Virus genome (UHGV): UHGV-0057186
Source: a virus
Direction: 5' to 3' (one strand)
Length of the DNA: 64,000 bases
A program made the translations under genes and the position numbers. The first letter of the stretch is position 1, and each line of letters opens with the position of its first letter. Below are positions 3,034-41,281 of this stretch, one piece after another. A model generated the notes under the pieces. It was given only the letters and a program-made list of their open reading frames with translations, had not been told where the DNA came from and made no database searches.

Positions 3034-4049
3034 TGTGTTGCCTCTACATATAGCTGATTCGCATATTGAATAAGTGCTTCACGGTCAGAATCAGTGATGT
3101 CTGGAATTGCATTAATGTATTCTTCCATCAACGTCTGAAGAGATTGAACTTCAACTTCTTCACTTTCATCTGACTCGACAGAGTTATCAATTTTTGACAC
3201 AACTCGTAATGAATGCACAACTTTTTCTAGTTCAGATTCGAACTTCGTCAGATTTTTGTCTACCTCAGTTACTATAACACGTACTGATAGATTTGTAAAA
3301 TCTTTATAGTCAATTTTTCCTTTAAATGGATAATGAATTCTACGATGCCAGGTAGTATTGTTTGGAATAAATTCCATTCGTTCTGTTTCTGTATCAAACA
3401 TCCAGAACCCACGAGGGTCATTCTCGTCACCTGCAGTTAGTGTCCATGGTGTCCCAATATATCTGACGTTAGCAGCCTCAGAGATAGTATGGAAGTGACC
3501 AGACCACACTTCCTTATAAGTCTTAAGGAAATCAGGTTCAAGACCGTGAGATTTCATTCCTTTATAAAAATAAAATCCGTTCAGTTCCCAGTGACCAACG
3601 CAAAAAGAAGCAGATGAAGTTTTGATGTGTTCAAGAATTTCACCAGTATTTTCTTCACACATCCAAGGAATTAAATCAATTAAACATCCGTCAAAATCTA
3701 CTGTAGTAGGCTTATCATATACTTTAACATTAGGATATTTAGCCAAAAGCTCAGTAGAGGCATTTGGAGTTAAAGTATTTTTAAAGTGCATATCATGGTT
3801 TCCTACAACAGTATGTAGGGTAATACCAGCATCATCAAGCATTTGAACTATTTCACGAGCGAACTCCATAGTTTTATGCGTGATTGCTTTTCGCACATCA
3901 AAAATATCGCCGTATTGAATCCATGTAGTAATTCCATTTTTCTTAGAATATTCTATTGCTTGTTTAATTCCATCCAACTGAATGGATTGAACCCACTCAT
4001 CATCGGCTTTAACGCCTAAATGCCAATCACCTAAATTTAAAATTTTCAT
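3030..4049 (-). CDS. 47: Recombination/repair nuclease gp47 (Mre11/SbcD-like phosphoesterase)
   Basis: 339-aa ORF with calcineurin-like phosphoesterase motifs GDWHLG, GDIFD, GNHD; length equals T4 gp47. Confidence 0.93.
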   Translation of the reverse strand: MKILNLGDWHLGVKADDEWVQSIQLDGIKQAIEYSKKNGITTWIQYGDIFDVRKAITHKTMEFAREIVQMLDDAGITLHTVVGNHDMHFKNTLTPNASTELLAKYPNVKVYDKPTTVDFDGCLIDLIPWMCEENTGEILEHIKTSSASFCVGHWELNGFYFYKGMKSHGLEPDFLKTYKEVWSGHFHTISEAANVRYIGTPWTLTAGDENDPRGFWMFDTETERMEFIPNNTTWHRRIHYPFKGKIDYKDFTNLSVRVIVTEVDKNLTKFESELEKVVHSLRVVSKIDNSVESDESEEVEVQSLQTLMEEYINAIPDITDSDREALIQYANQLYVEATQ

Positions 4050-4225
4050 ATATCAAGAACCGTCATTGAAATGCAAAATAAAATTATTGAAATAAACCCA
4101 TCTGGCGTGCTAAAGAACCCAATCCAACATGCTCTAGTGAATAGATAAAATGCAAGAAAAAGTATCACATATCCAAGAAATATCATTATATCAAACTCCG
4201 TATAAAGCTAAAGGGCCAAAGCCCT

Positions 4226-5428
4226 TTATTTTGTAATAATGTCAAACTGTTCTTTAAAGCAGAAGCTTGAATCTTGATGCTGATACAAAAATTCATAAGC
4301 TTTTTCGCGTTCGCGGTCATAAAGAGTTCGATCAGATGACAGTTCTTTAATACGTTCAAATGTTGATTCCATGTCATTTTCATCAAACCAAATGATACCG
4401 CTATCATGCGAGGTCAAAGGAGTATTATCAACACGGAATTTTAAATTTTCGCCAGTAGATTTCCAAAATACCGGAATTGTTCCACATGCACCAAGCTCGA
4501 GATGAGTATATTCTAAAGAACGTTGTAGATATTTTTTATCCAACTTACTCAACTGATAACCAAAACCGGATTTACTCATACGTTCAAGCATTTCGCTATT
4601 TACATAACGGTCAAGAATTTGCGTTGGCAAATTAGAAGCAATTTTAATTTGGTCTACTTGATGAAGACGATAATACTCGTATGGAATTCCTTTTTCTTTA
4701 ATAGGAATGAACGCTGGAGAACGTTCCAGACCTTCCATAATAGTACTTAGTCCTGCAGGTTTAAGATGTTTTTCATGAAAATCAAACATCTGATAAAAAC
4801 CTTTCCATGTGGTCGTACGACCAATCCAACGGTTGATATTCATGTTAATTTCAGAAACATCTTTCCAGTAGGTTGACCGAACCTTCGCAATATCCATAGG
4901 AGGCTGAAAGTTATATACTGTCGGTGCTTCTTCAATATCATCAAACAGAGAAACTGTTTCAGGATACCATTCTTTCATCAGAACTTTATTAAAATCACCA
5001 TTATCAGAATGGCTAAAAATAACATCAGCTCGACGAACAGTTTCTTCTAATCCCAAATTTCGGCGCAAAGAAAGAGAAGAATGGTCATGTTGATAAACTA
5101 CAACACGAACAGAAGGTTTAATGTTATCAATAATTTTTTTATAGTTATTAATAGTGTCTTCTTCAACCGAAGTAGCAGGAACTGAATTGATAATTAGAAT
5201 ATCACAATCATTTACCAGCTTAAGTGTTTTATCATATTCTTTTGCCAATAAAACCGGAATTGAAAATGATTTATAATCATGCGCGCAATTACGAGTAAAT
5301 GATTTATCTTTAGCATAAACCAAAGTTACTTCATGACCATTCTTAATAAACCAATCACGTTGCTCAAGAGAAAATTTAGTTACACCACAACCTTCAAGAC
5401 CTCTAGCCATAAAAATACATACTTTCAT
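4226..5428 (-). CDS. a-gt: DNA alpha-glucosyltransferase (hmC-DNA glucosylation)
   Basis: 400-aa ORF MKVCIFMARGLEGCGVTKFSLEQRDWFIKNGHEVTLVYAKDK..., matches T4 AGT as I recall it in sequence and length. Confidence 0.88.
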   Translation of the reverse strand: MKVCIFMARGLEGCGVTKFSLEQRDWFIKNGHEVTLVYAKDKSFTRNCAHDYKSFSIPVLLAKEYDKTLKLVNDCDILIINSVPATSVEEDTINNYKKIIDNIKPSVRVVVYQHDHSSLSLRRNLGLEETVRRADVIFSHSDNGDFNKVLMKEWYPETVSLFDDIEEAPTVYNFQPPMDIAKVRSTYWKDVSEINMNINRWIGRTTTWKGFYQMFDFHEKHLKPAGLSTIMEGLERSPAFIPIKEKGIPYEYYRLHQVDQIKIASNLPTQILDRYVNSEMLERMSKSGFGYQLSKLDKKYLQRSLEYTHLELGACGTIPVFWKSTGENLKFRVDNTPLTSHDSGIIWFDENDMESTFERIKELSSDRTLYDREREKAYEFLYQHQDSSFCFKEQFDIITK

Positions 5429-5469
5429 TTAATATCCTCTTTGTTTTGGTTTATTTTACCAAAAATTTA

Positions 5470-5498
5470 TAAAGCAATATAGGAGCCGAAGCTCCTAT
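5470..5498 (-). terminator. Hairpin (ggagccgaagctcc) followed by T-rich tract on minus strand
   Basis: Inverted repeat 5482..5495 with GAAG loop; T-rich 3' flank on minus strand. Confidence 0.4.
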
Positions 5499-5671
5499 CC
5501 ACATAATACGCCATACAGAGGCTCGTTAGAACTTTTAAATTTTATGCGCTTATATTTTATAGTTCCTTCTGCTTTAGCTTTATCATGAGACTCTTTAAAG
5601 CGTCTCATCATTTCCTCTTTAGAGGAACGAATTTTATTATAATCTATTTCAGAAGTCTGGGTGTTCATCTT

Positions 5672-5878
5672 TCATAACTGCCACCATTTTTTGACTTGAT
5701 AAGAATCAACCCACACTTTCATATTAGGGTCTGCTCTTACAATAGGAGGATTAACTTCTTTAATTGAACTATCATGGTATTCTTTTTCAGAAATTTTCAC
5801 ACAAAGATGACCATTCAAAGATTCAGTAAATCCTGCATTAATTTTAAGACGCTTGAATTTTACGTGTGTAAGCATCAA
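5672..5878 (-). CDS. Hypothetical small protein
   Basis: 68-aa ORF; overlaps next ORF by 35 nt, start uncertain. Confidence 0.35.
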   Translation of the reverse strand: MMLTHVKFKRLKINAGFTESLNGHLCVKISEKEYHDSSIKEVNPPIVRADPNMKVWVDSYQVKKWWQL

Positions 5879-19671: not shown

Positions 19672-20199
19672 TTATGCGAGTACCGTCTTTAACCGTTCTT
19701 CAAACTTCCGAAGAGTATTTTGGCGTTCAGCTCTTTGCTTTTTGTAAGTTTCAATACGCTCTGAAATGAGAGTGTATCGTTCATTTACTGATTCTTTCAT
19801 AAAATCAGGAATTTCATGAGAAGCTTTAATCTCGTCAAATTTATCAATAACTGCTTGCTCTTCAGCAATTAAGTTATCATACATCAAAATATCTTTCTTG
19901 ATGAACTCAATATCTTCTTGAGTTACACGAGATAATTTAGATGCTTTATCCTTTTTGTACTGTTCGTTAGTATCACGAGACCAGTGTAATGTACGATTTT
20001 TATTCGTATTCTTGTAAATTTCTACAATACCAATCTCATCGATAATAACGATCCAATTCCAACGAGATTTGTAAATTTGTCCTCCGTCAACCGTGATTTC
20101 ACCTCCGATTGAGATGTCATTAAAGAACTTGCTTTGTGCTTCAGATTTAAATTTACCATCGTTGTAATTTACCAGGTTGAAAATATCTTTAGCGTTCAT
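19672..20199 (-). CDS. Hypothetical protein
   Basis: 175-aa ORF with ggagga RBS. Confidence 0.55.
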   Translation of the reverse strand: MNAKDIFNLVNYNDGKFKSEAQSKFFNDISIGGEITVDGGQIYKSRWNWIVIIDEIGIVEIYKNTNKNRTLHWSRDTNEQYKKDKASKLSRVTQEDIEFIKKDILMYDNLIAEEQAVIDKFDEIKASHEIPDFMKESVNERYTLISERIETYKKQRAERQNTLRKFEERLKTVLA

Positions 20200-20227
20200 T
20201 TTGTGTTCCTCCGTAGTTGATAGTTGT

Positions 20228-20256
20228 ATAGTACCACAGAGGAACAGTCTTGTAAA
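20228..20256 (-). promoter_or_regulatory. T4-type early promoter (GTTTACA...TGG-TACTAT-ACAACTATCAAC)
   Basis: Conserved -35/extended -10/start-region family shared with >10 other sites in window. Confidence 0.6.
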
Positions 20257-20259
20257 CCA

Positions 20260-20574
20260 CTAAAAGAAACTTCTTTCACAATTTTTTCCACTGAACCACG
20301 CGCTCACTGCTTTCTTAGTCTCAGGAGCAGTGTTATCCATAAACCATTCAAAGGCAGCCTTTTTATGATTCTGGAGGGCTTCTCGGGCTTTAATCTGCTC
20401 ACGGTCTATTAACACTAACATATGAGCCTTTCTTGTCACCATGGGCTTCTTATGATTTTTTGAATATTCCCAATCATTTGTCCATCGCATCGTTGTTGCG
20501 AATTGAAGTACAGCTTCTTTAATTTTAGTTTCGTAAATTTCACGAGCCTTTGAGTATAACATCATTACCTCCAT
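20260..20574 (-). CDS. Hypothetical protein
   Basis: 104-aa ORF. Confidence 0.5.
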   Translation of the reverse strand: MEVMMLYSKAREIYETKIKEAVLQFATTMRWTNDWEYSKNHKKPMVTRKAHMLVLIDREQIKAREALQNHKKAAFEWFMDNTAPETKKAVSAWFSGKNCERSFF

Positions 20575-20663
20575 TCACCAGTTTAATTCTAGTCATCTTT
20601 TTGATGGCAGTCCATATAATCTATTTCTGAACTGCCTTTTTGTCATAGAAGTCCTCTTATGAA

Positions 20664-21632
20664 TTATTTCAGAAGAGTAACCTCAGCGATTTCTTCCCAA
20701 CCGTTTTTGTCGGTCATAATAAAGTCAGCAAGATAAAGAGCAGTACGCAGTGAAACATTGCGTAAACGATTAACATTGACTTTCATCCATGATAATGCTT
20801 TATAAGTTTCTTCATCAGAAAGACCGCGTTTTTGCATCATGTCAGTTGAAAGAATAACATCTTCAACCCTGACCATAATTTCTTCATTAGTGTGAACACC
20901 CAAATCTAAATAAACTGAGCGGGACACTAATGCTTGTAAATGTGGAGCAAGTTTAGTACCACGGTCTAATTCGCGGTCAATGTCAACGTTTGTGATAAAA
21001 ACAATCGTTCCTTTAAATTCAAACTCACGCTCAATGCCTTTTTCTTCTAAGTAAGAAGACGCAGTACTCCAGCAGACTTTACGGGTCTCTCCAGTGTCCA
21101 GAGCGGCTTTTAGAAGATTAAGAATGTCCATATCAGAGAAAACATCCACATCATCAATCAAAAGGACAGAATTCTCTTCACGATTATTCCAAAGCTGCTC
21201 ATAAAGACCAATACCAGAGATTTTACCATTAATGCTTTTATATTCAATGTATCCAATATCATTTGCTTTATTTAAAGCTTTATCTAAAGAATACGTTTTA
21301 CCAATACCTGCTGCGCCAGAGATAATTAATGAACGAATATTTCCATTAATAATACCATTCGTCATCATTCCCATAACATTAAATCTTTTATTAATGCGGG
21401 TTTTCATATCTTCATACGATTCTTTAACTTCTTCAACTTTTACACCATCATATGAAATGTCTGATTTGTAAACCCAAACACCGCGACGTTTACCGTCAAT
21501 TTCAACAAAAACTTTACCATCTCCTTGTGCATCTACCGGAGCATTATCTGGGAACCATTCGCCTAAAAGCTCAAAAGTTCCAGAGATTTCTTTACCGAAG
21601 TAGATACCCTTATTGATAGTTACAGTTTTCAT
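20664..21632 (-). CDS. P-loop ATPase (Walker A GAAGIGKT, Walker B VLLIDDVD)
   Basis: 322-aa ORF with both NTP-binding motifs. Confidence 0.6.
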   Translation of the reverse strand: MKTVTINKGIYFGKEISGTFELLGEWFPDNAPVDAQGDGKVFVEIDGKRRGVWVYKSDISYDGVKVEEVKESYEDMKTRINKRFNVMGMMTNGIINGNIRSLIISGAAGIGKTYSLDKALNKANDIGYIEYKSINGKISGIGLYEQLWNNREENSVLLIDDVDVFSDMDILNLLKAALDTGETRKVCWSTASSYLEEKGIEREFEFKGTIVFITNVDIDRELDRGTKLAPHLQALVSRSVYLDLGVHTNEEIMVRVEDVILSTDMMQKRGLSDEETYKALSWMKVNVNRLRNVSLRTALYLADFIMTDKNGWEEIAEVTLLK

Positions 21633-21659
21633 TTTATTCTCCTTTGATTTGATAGGACT

Positions 21660-21688
21660 ACTATAACATAGTCCTATCAGTTTGTATA
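21660..21688 (-). promoter_or_regulatory. Early promoter, weaker -35 (TG-T-TATAGT extended -10, CTATCAAA start region)
   Basis: Minus strand ...actatgTTATAGTagtcctatcaaa. Confidence 0.4.
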
Positions 21689-21689
21689 C

Positions 21690-21890
21690 TTATTTTGACA
21701 TTTCTTCGATGTCACGACGATACCCGTCACGAACTTCACGAAGAGCTTCAAGGCCACACATAGGCTCGATACCAGTAATGTGAACTTGATTAATCTGATA
21801 CTCTACATCTTCTAACTGAGCGAAAACATAACGACGTTCAGCTGCACAACCAGATTTAGCTTTACCGAAACGTTTATTCAAAGTAGTCAT
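21690..21890 (-). CDS. Hypothetical small protein
   Basis: 66-aa ORF with ggag RBS. Confidence 0.45.
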   Translation of the reverse strand: MTTLNKRFGKAKSGCAAERRYVFAQLEDVEYQINQVHITGIEPMCGLEALREVRDGYRRDIEEMSK

Positions 21891-21928
21891 TTTGTATCTC
21901 CAATTTACTCATTTGTTTTGATAGGTCT

Positions 21929-21957
21929 ATAGTATCAACAACTACAGACCATGTAAA
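21929..21957 (-). promoter_or_regulatory. T4-type early promoter
   Basis: Minus strand GTTTACATGGTCTGTAGTTGTTGATACTATAGACCTATCAAAA. Confidence 0.6.
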
Positions 21958-21961
21958 CAAT

Positions 21962-22225
21962 TTATTTTAATTTTCGCCAAATTTTTACTGCTTCTCGCCT
22001 CGATACTTCTACGGCGCCAAGTTCTATAGCTTTTTGACGACGACTTGCACGTAAGTCATAATGTTTAATGCGTTTATCTTGAAACCAAGAACGTTTCATT
22101 CCTATTGCTTCTGCCATTTCGTGAAGCTCTTCAATATCTCCATCAGTGAACATATGACAATTTTTAGTTGGATGACCGCGAAGTTTCCATCCATGATTCA
22201 TTAAAACATCTACGTAAACTGTCAT
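21962..22225 (-). CDS. Hypothetical basic protein
   Basis: 87-aa ORF. Confidence 0.5.
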   Translation of the reverse strand: MTVYVDVLMNHGWKLRGHPTKNCHMFTDGDIEELHEMAEAIGMKRSWFQDKRIKHYDLRASRRQKAIELGAVEVSRREAVKIWRKLK

Positions 22226-22407
22226 TGATTCTTCTCCAAATAAGTTTCGATAATTTTCTGGGCGAGATAAACCGCGTTATCTTCAGTTGCGTCTTCTAAG
22301 AAACTTTCAAAACACTCTGAAATTTCTTCTGTATCAATCAACTTTTTTACTTCAATTGGTGTAATTTTCATTTTGTTTTCCGTTTAAGTGTTTGTTTTGA
22401 TAGTTGT

Positions 22408-22436
22408 ATAGTACCATAAAGCTTTATGCTTGTAAA
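22408..22436 (-). promoter_or_regulatory. T4-type early promoter adjacent to terminator (PeSL-like cassette)
   Basis: Minus strand GTTTACAAGCATAAAGCTTTATGGTACTATACAACTATCAAAAC. Confidence 0.6.
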
Positions 22437-22461
22437 CAGTTTTGTGAAAAATTTTTGAAAT

Positions 22462-22485
22462 AAAAAAGGGAGCCCGAAGGCTCCC
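22462..22485 (-). terminator. Intrinsic terminator (gggagccttcgggctccc + TTTTTT)
   Basis: Perfect 7-bp GC stem with CGAA/TTCG loop followed by T-run on minus strand, 3 nt after the NTase gene stop. Confidence 0.7.
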
Positions 22486-22487
22486 TA

Positions 22488-23501
22488 TCATTTATAATAG
22501 CTTCGGTGGTTTTCAAGATAAACCTTCTCAAGGAAGTCATCCCAGAAACCCATGTCTACTTTTTGCTGCATACCGTTCTTAGAAGCTTCAGTAGATGCTG
22601 CTTCTACTTGATCGACCACATCTTCCAAAAACTCTTGAACTGTTTTAAATGGATGTTTACCCAACTTCACGTCGAGAATAAATGGAGCATCTTGGAGTGG
22701 ATAAACCAAGTCACCAGTTTTGTAAATTTCCAATAGTTGGAGTCCACCACGGCAGGCATGGCTCAGAGCTTTCCAGTCAATGCCTTCATTGGCTTCGGCC
22801 TTACGAGCGCGTTCACCGTATTCAGCATCTAATTTGTTCAGTGACTGCTTAAGCTCAATAAGAGAAAGCGTTGTCTGATATTTACGACCCAACACAGTGT
22901 AGAACGTTTGTGGGCCTGTTTTCTCATGATTATGGAACACCCATTCACAGAATTCGTTTTCTGGAAGACGATGCTTAATATCTTCAACTTTAGTACGACG
23001 CTGCTTAATAGAACCATCTTCTTGGTAATCAATCCATTGCTCAGGGATTTGATTAACTACTTTCAATACATCACGTAATGCAGCCAAACGAGAACCCTTG
23101 ACGCCATATTTAGAAGCTTGCTTACGGACATATCCTAAATAGGATTTCATGTTAGTCGTATAAAAACGAGAACGGTTGTCTTGAATAAACTTCCACACAT
23201 CAGGCAAATCAGATTTAACCACTAGTTCAGGTGGAGTGTGAAGCATATCCAATGCTACGGTTTCACCATCTGCTGCTAATTTAAAGAAATATTTAAGACT
23301 GTATAGTTCATGGTCAATATCATCTTTAGTGTTTTTAGATGATGTGTTGTTAGTGTTTTTACTCATATGCTCTTTGACATTTCCGATAAGAATATCGCGA
23401 GCAGGAGGAACAAAGATTTCTTTAAAATCTACATCAGATTCTGGGGTAGAAGTTCCATAAAGATGACTACCAAAATAGCTTTTCATTACTGTTTTCATCA
23501 T
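22488..23501 (-). CDS. Pol-beta-superfamily nucleotidyltransferase-fold protein (function unknown)
   Basis: 337 aa; N-terminal YFGSHLYGTSTPESDVDF (G-S-x11-D-x-D) and later ALDML acidic motif; start overlaps upstream stop in ATGA. Confidence 0.6.
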   Translation of the reverse strand: MMKTVMKSYFGSHLYGTSTPESDVDFKEIFVPPARDILIGNVKEHMSKNTNNTSSKNTKDDIDHELYSLKYFFKLAADGETVALDMLHTPPELVVKSDLPDVWKFIQDNRSRFYTTNMKSYLGYVRKQASKYGVKGSRLAALRDVLKVVNQIPEQWIDYQEDGSIKQRRTKVEDIKHRLPENEFCEWVFHNHEKTGPQTFYTVLGRKYQTTLSLIELKQSLNKLDAEYGERARKAEANEGIDWKALSHACRGGLQLLEIYKTGDLVYPLQDAPFILDVKLGKHPFKTVQEFLEDVVDQVEAASTEASKNGMQQKVDMGFWDDFLEKVYLENHRSYYK

Positions 23502-23971
23502 TCAGCCTTATATTCAATAACAGGACATACTTTAGCTTTACGCGCTTTTAAAAATTCGACGATAATAGATTTCTTGGGTTGAATAGGAGGTAAACCTTTA
23601 TACGCCCTATCAATATTTTCTACATGTAAAGCATAATCCTTTTTCCATTTATAATCTTTATATTTTTCACGCAGTTGTGCAGGAATAACAAATGAACCGA
23701 TAATAAGTAAAACAAGCAAAATGGCAAGTATAAATGCTGATGGAATAAGAGTCCATAAACTACCAAAAATAAGCCATTTCTGCATGATTTCTGCGCAGAT
23801 AATAGTTAGACCTACGAGTATAGTACATCCGAAAAAAGAAACGAAAAATGTAGGAATAACAATAGACCAAAAATACGCGCACAGTGTCTTAGGTCGTTGC
23901 CATTCATCGTTAAACAATTTGAATAATTTATAGTGCCAAGAGTTTTCATTAATAATCATAATTATAATCAT
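23498..23971 (-). CDS. Small polytopic membrane protein, translationally coupled to downstream NTase
   Basis: 157 aa; hydrophobic stretches YFWSIVIPTFFVSFFGCTILVGLTIICAEI and LIFGSLWTLIPSAFILAILLVLLIIGSFVIP; basic C-terminal tail. Confidence 0.55.
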   Translation of the reverse strand: MIIIMIINENSWHYKLFKLFNDEWQRPKTLCAYFWSIVIPTFFVSFFGCTILVGLTIICAEIMQKWLIFGSLWTLIPSAFILAILLVLLIIGSFVIPAQLREKYKDYKWKKDYALHVENIDRAYKGLPPIQPKKSIIVEFLKARKAKVCPVIEYKAE

Positions 23972-24489
23972 CCTTTCATTGAAGGCGTAACGGTTGTTAA
24001 ATACTTAATCATAGCTTCAGCTTCTGATTTTGATAATGAAATTTCTCCATTGTTTTGACGAATAGAAATAAAATCCGGATGACGGTCACCACCGGCTTTT
24101 AAAACACACATATAAGTATCAGTTTCATCTTCAATATTTGAAATGATTGAAGCAGTTCCACACGAATGTGGTTTTTGATAAATCAATACAGCTTTTCTTC
24201 CACCATTTGACTGTTCATAAACTTTTAATACATCAAACAAATCACTTCTTTTATCAATAGCTAAAATGTTGTTTTCATCTTCAATGTTAAATCCTTCGGA
24301 TACTTCATAAAGTGTCACCCATAAATCACCTATATCGATAGTAGCATTTTCCTTTCCATGACTTTCAAGAGCATGACAAATTTTCTTGATTTCGTCATAA
24401 CTCATTTTAATAATATCATCTCCTTGACTAAGAAAGATGTCATTTTTAAATTCAACACGAATTAAACCGCTTCCACTTGAAATAAACAT
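23968..24489 (-). CDS. Hypothetical protein, paralog B of tandem pair
   Basis: 173 aa; C-terminus SKSEAEAMIKYLTTVTPSM resembles neighbour. Confidence 0.55.
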   Translation of the reverse strand: MFISSGSGLIRVEFKNDIFLSQGDDIIKMSYDEIKKICHALESHGKENATIDIGDLWVTLYEVSEGFNIEDENNILAIDKRSDLFDVLKVYEQSNGGRKAVLIYQKPHSCGTASIISNIEDETDTYMCVLKAGGDRHPDFISIRQNNGEISLSKSEAEAMIKYLTTVTPSMKG

Positions 24490-24495
24490 ATTTCC

Positions 24496-25038
24496 TCACT
24501 TTGAAATCATAGTTGGAATGACAGAATCAAGATAAGTCTTTAACGCAATAGCTTCGTCTTTGGTAAATGTGACAATATGCGCTCGAAAATCATCAATTTG
24601 ACGAATAGTTAAGACATCTCCATCTTCATAACATTTTGATACATTTAAAACAGTTTCATCATTCTGATCGCACTGATCGCAAGCGTTAGTAATAATAGCA
24701 TTGCAATTTTTAAGCCATTTTAAACTATGTTTTCTTTCATTAGAATAATAAAAATATTTAATGTAAGTTATAAAATTATCCCAATTATTAATTGATAAGC
24801 ATATTGACTCGCTTTCAATGTTAAATCCTGGGCATAAAGAATAGAAATGAATTTTATGCTCATCATTAATGCTTACAATTTTATCAGTGTAAGGTTTTTC
24901 AATTTGGGTTAAATGAATAATTTCGCTAGGCGTAAAATATAGCATATCGTCTTCTTGCGTCAAACGATACATATTATTTACTTTTTCTATAGCCAATTCA
25001 CCAAAAAATGAACTAACTTCTAATACTAATCGTTTCAT
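24496..25038 (-). CDS. Hypothetical protein, paralog A of tandem pair
   Basis: 180 aa; shares GFNIE motif and C-terminus TKDEAIALKTYLDSVIPTM with neighbour. Confidence 0.55.
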   Translation of the reverse strand: MKRLVLEVSSFFGELAIEKVNNMYRLTQEDDMLYFTPSEIIHLTQIEKPYTDKIVSINDEHKIHFYSLCPGFNIESESICLSINNWDNFITYIKYFYYSNERKHSLKWLKNCNAIITNACDQCDQNDETVLNVSKCYEDGDVLTIRQIDDFRAHIVTFTKDEAIALKTYLDSVIPTMISK

Positions 25039-25039
25039 A

Positions 25040-25318
25040 TTAATCCTTTTTATTTGCGCTGATTTGTTCTAAAATTTTAGAGTATTCCTTTGTATCAGAT
25101 TTACGTACAATTGATACACTATAAGGCATACTATCGGTGTCTTTTATAAAGCGTTCCAAATGACACTCTAACAAAATTTCTGGATTATAAATCGTGTACA
25201 TCAAATTACCTGTTGCTCCACGATATTGGCAGATTTCTACTGATTGAACACCATTCCATAATTTTGTTAAAACTAAGTCACCTACTTCTAATTTAGGAAA
25301 ACTCATATTATTCACCAA
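25040..25318 (-). CDS. Hypothetical protein
   Basis: 92-aa ORF. Confidence 0.5.
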   Translation of the reverse strand: MVNNMSFPKLEVGDLVLTKLWNGVQSVEICQYRGATGNLMYTIYNPEILLECHLERFIKDTDSMPYSVSIVRKSDTKEYSKILEQISANKKD

Positions 25319-25493
25319 TTAAAGTTTCAATATAAGAATCAAGATTTACTTTAGCTTCTTCCATAAGAGTTTTGTATTTAATCTTGTTAGCATGTCCGGA
25401 GAAAGCTGATTCATCAATAATTGTTGATGTATGAACAGCTTTACTATACGTCTCAATTAATTCTCTTAATTTAAAAGCCTGCTCACTTGTCAT
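25308..25493 (-). CDS. Small helical protein (member of local small-paralog family)
   Basis: 61 aa; aggag RBS 7 nt upstream of ATG 25493. Confidence 0.5.
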   Translation of the reverse strand: MTSEQAFKLRELIETYSKAVHTSTIIDESAFSGHANKIKYKTLMEEAKVNLDSYIETLIGE

Positions 25494-25625
25494 TACATAC
25501 TCCTTTGAATAATATCAATAATGTTGTTCACCAGATTATAAGTAAACATTGGGTAATTATATTGAATCATCACATACACAACAAACAAAACTTTCATTCT
25601 CTTCTCCTTGGCAGTTGACAAGATT

Positions 25626-25655
25626 ACTATACCATAACCTTGCCAACTTGTAAAC
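25626..25655 (-). promoter_or_regulatory. T4-type early promoter heading the accessory cassette
   Basis: Minus strand GTTTACAAGTTGGCAAGGTTATGGTATAGTAATC. Confidence 0.6.
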
Positions 25656-25820
25656 CATTAAATGACGTTTTCAATAAAATTCTGAAGCTTTGTGTGAGCA
25701 TCAACCATGATTTTCATTTCTTCTTTTGCGAAAGCTGTACCTCTTTCCCGAGCAGAATACTCATAGTCAGAAACTGCATTAGCATATTCTTCAATTAGTT
25801 TCATTAAAAACATCTGCTTT

Positions 25821-26015
25821 TCAGTTTTCATTATTCCACCTAATCATTTCAAGATATTGAACTAACTTAGCTTTAGATTTATCCAAATCCTTTTTAGCTG
25901 CTTCTATACCGTCGTATGAATATCCTTCACAATGCTCAACTGCTAATTGATATGAATCTATTTCAATATCACGTGCTAATTTAATGATTTTTTCAAACTG
26001 TTCGCGTGTTAGCAT
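25821..26015 (-). CDS. Small helical protein (small-paralog family)
   Basis: 64-aa ORF. Confidence 0.45.
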   Translation of the reverse strand: MLTREQFEKIIKLARDIEIDSYQLAVEHCEGYSYDGIEAAKKDLDKSKAKLVQYLEMIRWNNEN

Positions 26016-26017
26016 AC

Positions 26018-26257
26018 TTAAACTCTCGTATTATGATCGATAATTTCATCAAGAAACATATCTAACGCTTCTAAAGCATTATCCACTTTAGTTTCAAAGT
26101 CTTTAATGCCTTTATTCGAAATACCCGATGAATACCAAGCAAAGTTAATGCGCTCCTCGTCTGCTTTACGAATTAAAGCTACCAATTCCTTAATTTTATC
26201 AGCTTGTTCGATACTAATCATTATTCCACCACATATGAAAGAGAGAATATTGCACAC
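26018..26257 (-). CDS. Small helical protein (small-paralog family)
   Basis: 79-aa ORF. Confidence 0.45.
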
Positions 26258-26454
26258 GCCATATGAGTTGCAACTTCATCACACATATTATAACGTTTCT
26301 TGAGAAATTCTACAAGTTCTTCACTAGTAACTTCATCCATGTCGACGAAAAAATCACCATTAATGATGACGTAGATATTTCCTTCTTGATTGAGTGCTTC
26401 AATTTTCATGATGTTCTCCTCTTTATCCGATGGTTGTATAGTACCACAGCTCAA
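26221..26454 (-). CDS. Hypothetical small protein
   Basis: 77-aa ORF. Confidence 0.4.
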
Positions 26455-26467
26455 ACGGAAAGTAAAC
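26438..26467 (-). promoter_or_regulatory. T4-type early promoter adjacent to terminator (PeSL-like)
   Basis: Minus strand GTTTACTTTCCGTTTGAGCTGTGGTACTATACAACCATC. Confidence 0.6.
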
Positions 26468-26477
26468 CGGTAAAATG

Positions 26478-26500
26478 AAAAAAGTCTCCCGAAGGAGACT
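26478..26500 (-). terminator. Intrinsic terminator downstream of rI.-1
   Basis: Hairpin gtctcc-ttcg-ggagac followed by TTTTTT on minus strand. Confidence 0.7.
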
Positions 26501-26504
26501 AATG

Positions 26505-26891
26505 TTATTCGAGGGAAAGAAGATACTTACTTTGGTAAAACATTCCAGTAATATCATCTATCGTGCTTTGGATGGCTGGAGGCATTTCTTTATAAATGCT
26601 GTTAGATTGGTCTAGTATGCGATCAATCATTTTAATTGTGTCGGTAGGAAGTTTACTAGCATCTGGAATTGAAGGTGTGTATTTTCTACCAGAATACCCC
26701 AAATATTGCTCACCAAATTTATCAATCAAATCTGGCAACTCGGAGAAAATAAAATCGTATGCTTTGTGTCTAGCATAACTTTTAGTTTCAAAATGTGCAG
26801 AATGAAAATAAGCTTGTGCAGCCATTAATAAACCTAAGTATTCATCTGCCTTTGAAGGTTTTCCACTTTGTGAAAAGTCGCTGAATTTCAT
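26505..26891 (-). CDS. Hypothetical protein (rI.-1 position)
   Basis: 128-aa ORF, 4-nt overlap with rI. Confidence 0.55.
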
Positions 26892-27181
26892 TCAGTCTCC
26901 AATTTAATGTTCATAATTCTAGCGTATGATTGTGCCATCTCCGCGCCTCGTTCTATACATTCAAAATCAGAAGAGCACGGGTCATTTTTATAGGTCGTTC
27001 TCATAAAACTATAGAATTGTTCAGACGATTCTACGCTTTTATTTTCAAAAAGCATATAAACGTGCCTAATACCAGATTCCATAAATTTATCAAAATGAGG
27101 ATCGACATTCACTTCAATCGGTGGAGATAAAGCAAACGCTAATCCTAGCATGGCAAATAGTGCCGTTGCTTTTAAGGCCAT
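26888..27181 (-). CDS. rI: Lysis-inhibition regulator RI (antiholin)
   Basis: 97 aa MALKATALFAMLGLAFALSPPIEVNVDPHFDKFMESGIRHVYMLFENKS..., matches T4 RI as I recall it; N-terminal signal-anchor. Confidence 0.88.
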   Translation of the reverse strand: MALKATALFAMLGLAFALSPPIEVNVDPHFDKFMESGIRHVYMLFENKSVESSEQFYSFMRTTYKNDPCSSDFECIERGAEMAQSYARIMNIKLETE

Positions 27182-27193
27182 AAAGGCCTCCTA

Positions 27194-27406
27194 TCATTTT
27201 TGTCCTGTATTTACTTTATGCCGATGCACGGCCTTAACTTTATCAAGGTATTTTTCAAAATTTCGCAATCTAGTATAGTCTGCCGGAGATTGGTTGAGTG
27301 ATACTTCTCGACGCAAAGCTGAAATGATATTTCCAACTTCCCTACGAATTTCATCTAATTGAAGAACGGTAAGATTGCGAAGTTGCTTTTCAGTTAATTG
27401 TAGCAT
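27194..27406 (-). CDS. Hypothetical protein (rI.1 position)
   Basis: 70-aa ORF. Confidence 0.5.
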
Positions 27407-27432
27407 ATATACCCCTTTAGTTAGATAAACCT

Positions 27433-27440
27433 ATTTATAA
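27433..27440 (-). promoter_or_regulatory. Late promoter TATAAATA
   Basis: Exact TATAAATA on minus strand about 25 nt upstream of ATG 27406. Confidence 0.5.
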
Positions 27441-27448
27441 CTTTTGCA

Positions 27449-28030
27449 CTAACCGAGCTTTTTAGTTAATTCATTCCAATGTTTTCTACACAAAGAAACA
27501 TAAATTTCATCACCAATACAGATTTGATTACCTTCTTTAACTGGTGTTCCATCTTCCATTAATCGAGCTGTCATAATAGCTTTTTTACCACAATGACAAA
27601 CTGCCTTTAGTTCAATAAGTTTATCTGCAATCGCCAAAAGTTCTTTAGAACCTTCAAATAATTTTCCAGCGAAATCAGTCCTTAGTCCATAAGCCATAAC
27701 AGGAACATTATATGTATCAACAATTCGGCTTAATTGATGCACTTGTTCAGTTTTTAAAAACTGAGCTTCATCTACAAATACACAATGAATATCTTTTTGT
27801 GCTTCAGCCCATTTATAGAACTCAAAAATATCCATATCATCCGTAATAATATTCGCTTCCTGTTTAATTCCAATGCGAGAAACGACTTCACAGACAGAAT
27901 CGCGAGTATCAATAGCAGGCTTAAGAACTAATACACTCATTCCACGTTCTTTATAATTATGCGCAGCAGTCAAAAGAGAAGCAGATTTTCCAGCATTCAT
28001 TGCTGCATAAGTAAAAATTAAACTCGCCAT
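27449..28030 (-). CDS. tk: Thymidine kinase
   Basis: 193 aa; P-loop AMNAGKSASLL, Zn motif CHCGKKA...CRKH, length as in T4 Tk. Confidence 0.92.
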   Translation of the reverse strand: MASLIFTYAAMNAGKSASLLTAAHNYKERGMSVLVLKPAIDTRDSVCEVVSRIGIKQEANIITDDMDIFEFYKWAEAQKDIHCVFVDEAQFLKTEQVHQLSRIVDTYNVPVMAYGLRTDFAGKLFEGSKELLAIADKLIELKAVCHCGKKAIMTARLMEDGTPVKEGNQICIGDEIYVSLCRKHWNELTKKLG

Positions 28031-40330: not shown

Positions 40331-40407
40331 TTGGCCAGGGTGAAAGGATTCTAACCTTTAACCTGCGGTTTAGAGGACCGCTACTCTATACAATTGAGTT
40401 ACACCCC
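40331..40407 (-). tRNA. tRNA-Arg (anticodon UCU)
   Basis: Hand-folded: acceptor CGGGGTG/CACCCTG, anticodon stem GCGGT/ACCGC loop CCTCTAA, T-arm AAAGG-TTAGAAT-CCTTT, encoded CCA. Confidence 0.7.
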
Positions 40408-40533
40408 GTAATTAGTTCACAGCAATACCTACTCCAACAATCAAGATGTCTTCACACGAAATTAAGAGAAGAGTGATCAGTTTAACCCCTATAATCGCGT
40501 CAAGTGATATTAATGTGACAACTGTCACAAGTT

Positions 40534-40608
40534 TGGCGGACGTGATAGGATTCGAACCTATAACAAATCGCTTAACAGGCGATCGCTCTGCCATTGAGCT
40601 ACACATCC
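40534..40608 (-). tRNA. tRNA-Asn (anticodon GUU)
   Basis: Acceptor GGATGTG/CACGTCC, D-arm GCTC-AATGGCA-GAGC, anticodon loop CTGTTAA, T-arm ATAGG-TTCGAAT-CCTAT, CCA encoded. Confidence 0.7.
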
Positions 40609-40612
40609 AAAT

Positions 40613-40699
40613 TGGTGGGGAGTGATGGAGTCGAACCACCCGAGTCGCAATGACAATGGATTTACAGTCCACACCGCTACCTCTACGGGATAACTCCCC
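40613..40699 (-). tRNA. tRNA-Tyr (anticodon GUA), class II with long variable arm
   Basis: Acceptor GGGGAGT/ACTCCCC perfect, anticodon loop CTGTAAA, T-arm GGTGG-TTCGACT-CCATC, CCA encoded. Confidence 0.65.
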
Positions 40700-40708
40700 A
40701 AATTAATT

Positions 40709-40783
40709 TGGTGGCCCTGGGTGGAATTGAACCACCATCTGGCGATTATGAGTCGCTTGCTTGAACCTTCCAGCTACAGGGCC
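40709..40783 (-). tRNA. tRNA with CAU anticodon (Ile2-lysidine type or Met)
   Basis: Acceptor GGCCCTG/CAGGGCC, anticodon loop CTCATAA, T-arm GGTGG-TTCAATT-CCACC, CCA encoded. Confidence 0.7.
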
Positions 40784-40784
40784 T

Positions 40785-40860
40785 TGGTGCTGATTGACGG
40801 AATCGAACCGCCGACCTTCTCATTACAAGTGAGTTGCTCTACCTACTGAGCTAAATCAGC
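40785..40860 (-). tRNA. tRNA-Thr (anticodon UGU)
   Basis: Acceptor GCTGATT/AATCAGC, D-arm GCTC-AGTAGGTA-GAGC, anticodon loop CTTGTAA, T-arm GGCGG-TTCGATT-CCGTC. Confidence 0.75.
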
Positions 40861-40865
40861 AAAAC

Positions 40866-40955
40866 TGGCGGAGGCGATAGGATTTGAACCTATGAGTCGC
40901 CGGAGCGACTGCCGGTTTTCAAGACCGGTGCATTAAACCACTCTGCCACGCCTCC
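40866..40955 (-). tRNA. tRNA-Ser (anticodon UGA), class II
   Basis: Acceptor GGAGGCG/CGCCTCC, anticodon stem CCGGT/ACCGG loop CTTGAAA, long variable arm, T-arm ATAGG-TTCAAAT-CCTAT. Confidence 0.75.
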
Positions 40956-40957
40956 AG

Positions 40958-41031
40958 TCTCCATACAAGGATTTGAACCTTGGACCTCCTGATCCCAAAT
41001 CAGGCGCTCTACCAAACTGAGCTACACGGAG
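40958..41031 (-). tRNA. tRNA-Pro (anticodon UGG)
   Basis: Acceptor CTCCGTG/TATGGAG, D-arm AGCTCAGTTTGGTAGAGC, anticodon loop TTTGGGA, T-arm CAAGG-TTCAAAT-CCTTG; abuts tRNA-Ser with 2-nt spacer. Confidence 0.7.
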
Positions 41032-41041
41032 TAAATTAAAT

Positions 41042-41115
<74 letters not shown>

Positions 41116-41120
41116 AAATT

Positions 41121-41207
41121 TGGTGCGAGAAGTGGGACTCGAACCCACAAGGAAATCATTCCGCAGCATTTTAAGTGCTGTGCCTTTACCAATTTGACCA
41201 TTCTCGC
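41121..41207 (-). tRNA. tRNA-Leu (anticodon UAA), class II
   Basis: Acceptor GCGAGAA/TTCTCGC, anticodon stem CAGCA/TGCTG loop CTTAAAA, T-arm GTGGG-TTCGAGT-CCCAC. Confidence 0.75.
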
Positions 41208-41208
41208 G

Positions 41209-41281
41209 CTGGGAATAAAGGACTCGAACCTTTGCATCCTGGAATCAAAATCCAGTGCCTTACCAACTTGGCTAATTCCCA
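41209..41281 (-). tRNA. tRNA-Gln (anticodon UUG)
   Basis: Acceptor TGGGAAT/ATTCCCA, anticodon stem CTGGA/TCCAG loop TTTTGAT, T-arm AAAGG-TTCGAGT-CCTTT; abuts tRNA-Leu with 1-nt spacer. Confidence 0.75.

Follow-up and report, generated by a model that had tools for sequence, protein, structure and literature searches.

Virus genome UHGV-0057186 was analysed as a stretch of 64,000 nucleotides, the whole of which is called the window here. At 22462-25655 it carries a string of minus-strand genes that ends in a gene for a nucleotidyltransferase (NTase), the closest described counterpart of which is NrdC.11 of phage T4 (NP_049709, 'nucleotidyltransferase' in RefSeq). T4 NrdC.11 was identified as an RlaP in a 2025 preprint, where it falls into cluster 5 of the PF10127 similarity network (PMC12776372). 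The crystal structure of the P. fluorescens enzyme (PfRlaP) comprises an NTase domain followed by a helical domain, over which a C-terminal helix closes. In that study, two Pseudomonas RlaPs (from P. fluorescens and P. aeruginosa) added one or two nucleoside monophosphates to the 3'-OH of RNA and did not act on DNA or on protein (E. coli proteins). They favoured the broken end of a mimic of cleaved transfer RNA (tRNA), performed best with Mn2+, and increased the aminoacylation of a repaired tRNA missing one anticodon-loop nucleotide. RlaPs were proposed to oppose ribotoxins such as RloC, which cut a tRNA and then trim a nucleotide (PMC12776372). The same prediction was made for phages by Iyer et al., the distribution of RlaP mirroring that of RNA ligases in jumbo phages (PMC7824862).

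Iyer et al. set CCA-adding enzymes beside RlaP as phage RNA-repair NTases (PMC7824862). These are also Pol-beta NTases that restore tRNA 3' ends without a template; they differ in belonging to another Pfam family and in working at the acceptor end, whereas RlaP is proposed to act where the anticodon loop has been broken. Kanamycin nucleotidyltransferase (KNTase), or ANT(4'), acts on small-molecule substrates. In Hailong (PDB 9dbh; PMC13434031), the NTase HalB is combined with the channel HalA.

NrdC.11 and the early unit that contains it

The source of the interval is a Tequatrovirus (phage vB_EcoM_FJ1, 99.8% identity; T6, 96.6%), and from its sequence the interval is the predicted mobD.2-to-nrdC.11 early transcription unit, in the arrangement common to T6 and most relatives. 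Its NTase is 97.9% identical to T4 NrdC.11 over the full length, and the gene occupies the same place as in T4, between nrdC.10 and the mobD region and with the same promoter and terminator; the flanking ATPase (322 aa) is T4 NrdC.10, at 99.4% identity. An earlier reading of the letters alone (the sequence-only reading below) had described an unrecognised accessory cassette with no named T4 gene among its proteins. That description has to be given up: two of the proteins do have T4 names, NrdC.11 (337 aa) and MobD.1 (180 aa, 83% identical), and the arrangement is that of the majority in Tequatrovirus. Indeed, the interval is matched by 585 phage records and at least 80% of it is carried by 360, against 47 with a true mobD. 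The locus is already known, as the common form of an ordinary T-even early operon whose last gene has both a name and a family.

The same reading had placed the interval at the position of T4 mobD, and here it was right. DNA comparison puts mobD in T4 where the window has the genes of the membrane protein and of the 173-aa MobD.1 paralogue (23503-24470), and finds no T4 counterpart for the 92- and 61-aa genes (25037-25481). T4 differs, then, in having mobD directly upstream of nrdC.11 instead of these two genes, in being without the 92- and 61-aa genes, and in having no equivalent of an additional 722-bp insertion with three open reading frames (ORFs) that lies downstream of the terminator in the window. 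Since true mobD (at least 95% identity) is present in only 47 phage records and the membrane protein (at least 80% identity) in 427, it is T4 that is exceptional here, and the common state is the one represented by the window. In T4, the homing endonuclease gene mobD has taken the place of the membrane-protein gene and the MobD.1 paralogue. The features of the unit, in the order of transcription, are as follows.

25654-25626, minus strand: putative T4-type early promoter, GTTTACA + 17 nt + TATAGT with a TG-extended -10 element (motif scan, position and conservation)
25597-25493, minus strand: 34-aa homologue of T4 mobD.2, colinear with it; opens the unit
25308..25493, minus strand: 61-aa protein, DUF7438 (PF24219; Pfam E 1.4e-15; PHROG 4859)
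25040..25318, minus strand: 92-aa ORF, phage Tudor domain PF24144 (Pfam E 2.7e-40, match from residue 5)
24496..25038, minus strand: mobD.1 orthologue, 180 aa, y05I-like, PF24449 and PF24448 (Pfam E 1.3e-39 and 2.2e-23), 83% identity to T4 MobD.1
23968..24489, minus strand: MobD.1 paralogue, 173 aa, PF24449 and PF24448 (Pfam)
23498..23959, minus strand: small membrane protein, 153 aa from Met5 (ORF to 23971), PHROG 944 'membrane protein' (family alignments)
22488..23501, minus strand: nrdC.11 orthologue, RlaP-family Pol-beta NTase, 337-aa ORF, 97.9% identity to T4 NrdC.11
22486-22461, minus strand: intrinsic terminator with an 8-bp G+C stem, UUCG loop and U6 tail (folding)

Translation of the NTase probably starts at the second ATG (23498), where the homologues and the T6 annotation begin; the product would then have 336 aa, as in T4 and T6, with a 1-nt TGATG overlap. 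Pfam assigns it to a single family, RlaP (PF10127), at a score of 44.2 bits (E 2.5e-11) where 23 is the gathering threshold; residues 7-135 match profile positions 23-142 of 249. Nearly all the listed homologues carry a precomputed PF10127 assignment, and PHROG 388 ('nucleotidyltransferase') matches over the full length (E 8e-137). Across Straboviridae, 1565 phage records contain a homologue of NrdC.11. None of the cassette proteins had a usable match in NCBIfam.

Residue conservation was assessed in an alignment of 130 NrdC.11-type sequences reaching down to approximately 25% identity. G11-S12, D23, D25 and D61 are invariant in all 130, and positions 63 and 85 are always Asp or Glu. The proposal that the GS...DxD residues form a conserved catalytic motif is borne out by this invariance and by their alignment with canonical RlaPs; the spacing originally given, G-S-x11-D-x-D, has to be corrected to G11-S12-x10-D23-x-D25. 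The acid of the ALDML segment (D85), offered as a further catalytic motif, is a genuine family position (Asp or Glu) that aligns with an invariant Glu of canonical RlaPs; the canonical third carboxylate is more likely D63, which the model places on strand 62-68. A profile-profile comparison of the NrdC.11-type proteins with canonical RlaPs taken from bacterial loci (93% probability, E 3e-7, 121 N-terminal columns) pairs GS, DxD, D63 with an invariant Asp, and D85 with that invariant Glu.

The AlphaFold 2 (AF2) model of NrdC.11 has a mean predicted local distance difference test (pLDDT) score of 91.6 and a predicted template-modelling score (pTM) of 0.78. An alpha/beta NTase domain at the N-terminus is followed by a beta-rich insertion (155-209), and a bundle of helices forms the C-terminal part. 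GS lies at the end of strand 3-10, DxD at the start of strand 24-31, and D61 at the start of and D63 within strand 62-68. The closest structural neighbours are HalB, PDB 3c18 and KNTase, NTases alone standing at the top of both searches, and the C-terminal bundle is HEPN-like and resembles that of KNTase. The resemblance to KNTase/ANT(4') and 3c18 is one of fold, at 8-12% identity and with low template-modelling scores (TM-scores) of 0.24-0.29, and no relation exists at the sequence level. Sequence searches of the PDB with the protein, the 130-sequence profile and the canonical RlaP profile gave no relevant match. The 337-aa protein is, as had been supposed, a Pol-beta-superfamily NTase: the RlaP score of 44.2 bits, the invariant catalytic residues and the NTase-fold neighbours all agree on this. 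It shares with the RlaP family a PF10127 match above the gathering score, the residues GS, DxD and the next Asp and Glu, which match invariant positions, and, to judge from the model, probably also the combination of an NTase with a helical domain. It is distinguished from canonical RlaPs by approximately 70 additional residues, the insertion at 155-209, an invariant DWKAxSHAxR motif of its own and its separate cluster 5.

The fold had also suggested signalling enzymes of the cGAS, DncV or OAS type. On this account, NrdC.11 would be a CD-NTase (cGAS/DncV-like) or an OAS-like protein making a cyclic or linear oligonucleotide signal, and would serve as an anti-defence decoy or a phage signalling enzyme. 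The single point in its favour is the GS...DxD motif shared by the superfamily. Pfam assigns only RlaP, PADLOC models match neither the NTase nor any other cassette protein at E 0.01 or better, no CD-NTase is found among the top structural matches, and the C-terminal bundle is HEPN-like and KNTase-type, not PAP/OAS1-type. No linked effector with a nucleotide-sensor domain was found, the adjacent membrane protein having no Pfam domain. We consider this account scarcely credible.

The membrane protein and its relation to nrdC.11

The protein encoded immediately upstream of nrdC.11 was first described as having 157 aa and two or three transmembrane helices. Its membrane character stands, whereas its start is probably at Met5, giving 153 aa, and the helices are probably two. 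Two hydrophobic stretches are present, and the AF2 model (pLDDT 85) contains two long helices (26-64 and 72-120) with strands at the N- and C-termini. In this model the terminal strands appear to be neighbours, a hint that the two ends of the chain together make up a small domain, perhaps a metal-binding one. An exhaustive search gives the family 455 representatives at 50% clustering, the alignments of which begin at Met5, and nearly all are stand-alone proteins of 120-170 aa. They display the conserved motifs NSWHY..LCxYFW near the N-terminus and KAKKxKVCPxIEF near the C-terminus, with a hydrophobic core of variable sequence in between; S7, W8, C27, Y29, C145 and P146 (153-aa numbering) are invariant in 85 homologues, and SWH is near-invariant. 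The protein is found in 938 phage records and has no match in Pfam, NCBIfam or PADLOC. By sequence comparison, it is a member of a separate, widespread and uncharacterised phage family. Shortened versions of 99-135 aa are found in T2 and some other phages.

ATGA overlaps at 23498-23501 and 23968-23971 had been taken as a sign that the membrane protein and the NTase are probably co-translated. Both tetranucleotides exist, and the overlap between the two genes with them; given the start of the membrane protein at Met5, the one at 23968-23971 is probably not a real stop/start junction. Moreover, nearly all gene pairs of the region are separated or overlap by just a few bases, so the ATGA overlaps carry nothing specific about this pair.

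Two genes of this kind, adjacent and overlapping, recall Hailong in architecture, and in architecture only: neither homology of both components nor co-inheritance of the pair was found. They could nevertheless be read as a two-gene module, either Hailong-like, with an oligonucleotide made by the NTase gating or regulating the membrane protein, or a membrane-tethered device for nucleotide signalling or superinfection exclusion. The sole positive hint is that two subfamilies of Straboviridae keep the membrane-protein gene upstream of nrdC.11 at a distance of no more than approximately 1 kb. In Mosigvirus it adjoins nrdC.11 as in the window, and Acinetobacter phage Konradin has a homologue two genes upstream of its NTase gene. 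The distribution of the genes argues against such a module. T4 has retained nrdC.11 without the membrane protein; in three genera, other genes separate the two (two or three genes in Gelderlandvirus, a Klebsiella phage and Serratia Winklervirus); and the NTase stands without a membrane-protein neighbour in many phages, those of Aeromonas, Vibrio and Rhodobacter and Slopekvirus among them. Conversely, no PF10127 gene was found within approximately 5 kb of three membrane-protein relatives outside T4-like phages (in a 134-kb Vibrio phage, a prophage-like bacterial region and a 143-kb phage contig). To this must be added that neither protein matches a PADLOC model and that gene overlaps are the norm here. 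These comparisons lend no support to a conserved module, and we judge a two-gene device of either sort very improbable.

The simplest reading of the gene orders is that the adjacency would reflect inherited gene order in a mosaic region combined with local gene loss, and not obligate pairing. Where no genes intervene, as in Tequatrovirus and Mosigvirus, the membrane-protein and nrdC.11 genes would thereby have come into contact. Since the membrane protein is kept approximately 1 kb upstream in two subfamilies, a looser functional link with NrdC.11 is conceivable, and such a link may exist. A stronger version, in which the two proteins act together (the membrane protein holding or regulating the NTase at the inner membrane, or the NTase product controlling the membrane protein in Hailong-like fashion) and T4 lost this layer through mobD, deserves equally little credence as the module itself.

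Other genes are found at this place in related phages. A soluble protein of 140-147 aa is encoded upstream of nrdC.11 in Gelderlandvirus (L003 3986-4408), Klebsiella phage Roth20 (L004 4200-4622) and Serratia phage CHI14 (L005 4744-5187). These proteins share 47-57% mutual identity and the N-terminus MEIEIVTTKKKL, and have no homologue in the window. In the phages of Klebsiella and Serratia, the gene for this protein and the start of nrdC.11 have 4 nt in common; a 183-aa gene intervenes in Gelderlandvirus.

Refilling of tRNA ends as a candidate function

We surveyed the surroundings of NrdC.11-type genes of full length in genome assemblies of bacteria and archaea, keeping the best 80 of 145 matched loci, 45 of which had full flanks. 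A canonical RlaP gene lies directly downstream of the NrdC.11-type gene in 13-14 of these 45 loci; the other RNA-repair neighbours are RtcA (two loci), a Pnkp ligase (one) and a T4 Rnl1-type ligase (one). This gene context, as far as neighbourhood can tell, fits an RNA-end function.

In the tandem pairs (loci L035, L038, L039, L047, L050, L069, L070, L079, L080, L085, L086, L088 and L096, at approximately 4000-5800 in each), the second, canonical RlaP is the shorter (236-288 aa), stop and start codons commonly overlap, and the two genes represent distinct RlaP types. In T4-like phages, the NrdC.11 type is alone at the nrdC.11 locus, with no canonical RlaP beside it. A recurrent upstream neighbour of approximately 340-380 aa in the bacterial loci was discarded as a candidate partner: the proteins are alike in size and unrelated (radical SAM, aminotransferases, ABC permease, RtcA, AbiEii). 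In Rhodobacter phage RcXuper (148 kb, non-T4-like; L011 2501-3859), a tRNA-Tyr gene follows the NrdC.11-type gene at approximately 280 bp.

Genes for Pnkp and for two RNA ligases are present in other parts of the T4 genome. NrdC.11 would add one or two nucleotides to damaged tRNA 3' ends ahead of ligation, the nucleotides refilled being those that host anticodon nucleases such as RloC would have trimmed from the cleaved tRNA; the phage Pnkp and RNA ligases could then restore a working tRNA. RNA repair of this kind appears to be the most likely function of NrdC.11, judging from distant bacterial RlaPs and from gene context, and it is a published hypothesis.

As an alternative to repair, NrdC.11 could be an offensive or host-takeover enzyme that places nucleotides onto the 3' ends of host tRNA or other RNA to block their use (MenT/AbiEii-like), or one that nucleotidylates a protein or a small molecule (KNTase/MNT-like). 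Against this, the Pseudomonas RlaPs left E. coli proteins, as well as DNA, unmodified (PMC12776372), and at the level of the family the gene context is that of RNA repair. Such an enzyme is unlikely, albeit less so than the signalling schemes considered above.

Several observations weigh against tRNA-end refilling by a unit in which the membrane protein is no obligate partner. The characterised RlaPs are distant from NrdC.11, and the Pfam and profile matches are confined to the N-terminal 120-130 residues. When the C-terminal halves of the NrdC.11 type were compared with those of canonical RlaPs, the result fell short of significance (E 0.55), the alignment of K-x3-[HY]-x2-R being only suggestive; with C-terminal halves that do not align significantly, the NrdC.11-type proteins are a divergent RlaP branch. 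The beta-rich insertion 155-209 apparently has no equivalent in the shorter canonical RlaPs (236-288 aa), as judged from their length and the lack of an alignment. No RNA ligase or kinase gene lies within the cassette (22462-25655), and the upstream neighbours of the bacterial NrdC.11 homologues are heterogeneous. A viable genome-reduced T4 has lost nrdC.11-mobD.3, which makes the gene dispensable in the laboratory (PMC9825161). Finally, in two subfamilies, Konradin included, the membrane-protein gene recurs upstream of nrdC.11 and no farther from it than approximately 1 kb. With these points counted, we hold with moderate confidence that the interval is a mobD.2-nrdC.11 early unit, that its NTase refills tRNA ends as an RlaP-family enzyme, and that the membrane protein is not its obligate partner.

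Organization of the unit and neighbouring features

The gene string is tightly packed on one strand between a conserved sigma-70-type promoter sequence and a strong intrinsic terminator, as in a T4-type early unit. The view of the interval as one predicted early transcription unit is thereby upheld, since the conserved promoter-like site and the terminator bracket it. The promoter assigned by the sequence-only reading is the top-scoring promoter-like site in 20000-27500 (10 of 12 positions matched, with an extended -10). It is intergenic, in the gap between the stop of a 57-aa ORF (25658) and the MobD.2 start (25597), and conserved at 96% identity in T4 and 99% in T6. Promoter-like hexamer pairs are frequent in this AT-rich DNA (41 observed versus 30 +/- 5 in shuffles); for this reason the call of a probable early promoter draws on position, quality and conservation together, not on the scan alone. 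The TTTACA-17-TACTAT architecture reappears in other gaps, at 22436-22408, 21957-21929 and 20256-20228, the first of these being the next early-type promoter behind the terminator.

A 9-bp inverted repeat at 25611-25645 flanks the -10 element (GTTGGCAAG ... CTTGTCAAC), and it is perfect in T4 (GTTGACAAG / CTTGTCAAC). Its downstream arm coincides with the likely start of the transcript (near 25619), and the arms could pair in read-through RNA arriving from upstream. At the other end of the unit, the hairpin and T-run previously called a strong terminator fold at -17.7 kcal/mol (z = -4.0), a value that none of 200 shuffles equalled, and the structure is kept in T4 and T6. Neither promoters nor terminators are annotated in the GenBank records of T4.

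All six ORFs originally listed are present on the minus strand at their coordinates; a seventh gene had been overlooked, namely the 34-aa mobD.2 homologue that comes first behind the promoter. It has AAGGAG 7 nt before its ATG. A longer, 42-aa version with a TTG start was rejected: it would begin roughly where transcription is expected to start, or slightly before that point, and leave no room for a ribosome-binding site. The 61-aa protein is 100% identical in T6 and has no T4 match. The 92-aa ORF probably yields an 88-aa product from the ATG at 25306; the corresponding Tudor-domain (PF24144) gene is annotated in T6 as 267 nt. The 173- and 180-aa proteins had been described as paralogous and are so, with 28.7% identity (E 3.6e-11) and the same two Pfam domains; the former has 96% identity in T6 and none in T4.

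The insertion mentioned above (722 bp, 21643-22364) lies between the nrdC.11 terminator, with the promoter behind it, and nrdC.10, and is found in neither T4 nor T6. It contains three small minus-strand ORFs of 49 aa, 87 aa (DUF4031, PF13223) and 66 aa, and the early-type promoter at 21957-21929 falls within it. Only nine phage records contain the entire insertion and many have one half or the other, as expected of a mosaic site. Farther away in the window, 40335-41281 (minus strand) gives ten tRNA-model matches, nine strong and the tenth at 30.2 bits, just over the gathering score; the cluster corresponds to the region of tRNA genes in T-even phages.

The names under which these genes appear in databases cannot be relied upon. 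Many entries call NrdC.11 'thioredoxin' and some even 'HNH homing endonuclease', and MobD.1 and MobD.4 are mislabelled 'molybdopterin-guanine dinucleotide biosynthesis protein MobD'. Records also describe the membrane protein as similar to a 'prohead core protein' and the 61-aa protein as 'helicase loader' or 'kilA'. Misnaming of this extent means that such labels should not be taken at face value.

As a discovery the unit carries little weight, for it consists of a common T-even gene string ending in a named T4 gene of a described family with a published functional hypothesis. For the T-even phages, it shows T4 as the exception at the mobD site, the membrane-protein gene and the MobD.1 paralogue displaced there being kept by most relatives. 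As to NrdC.11 itself, the proposal that it may counter nucleotide-trimming anticodon nucleases would be directly testable in T4 and T6.

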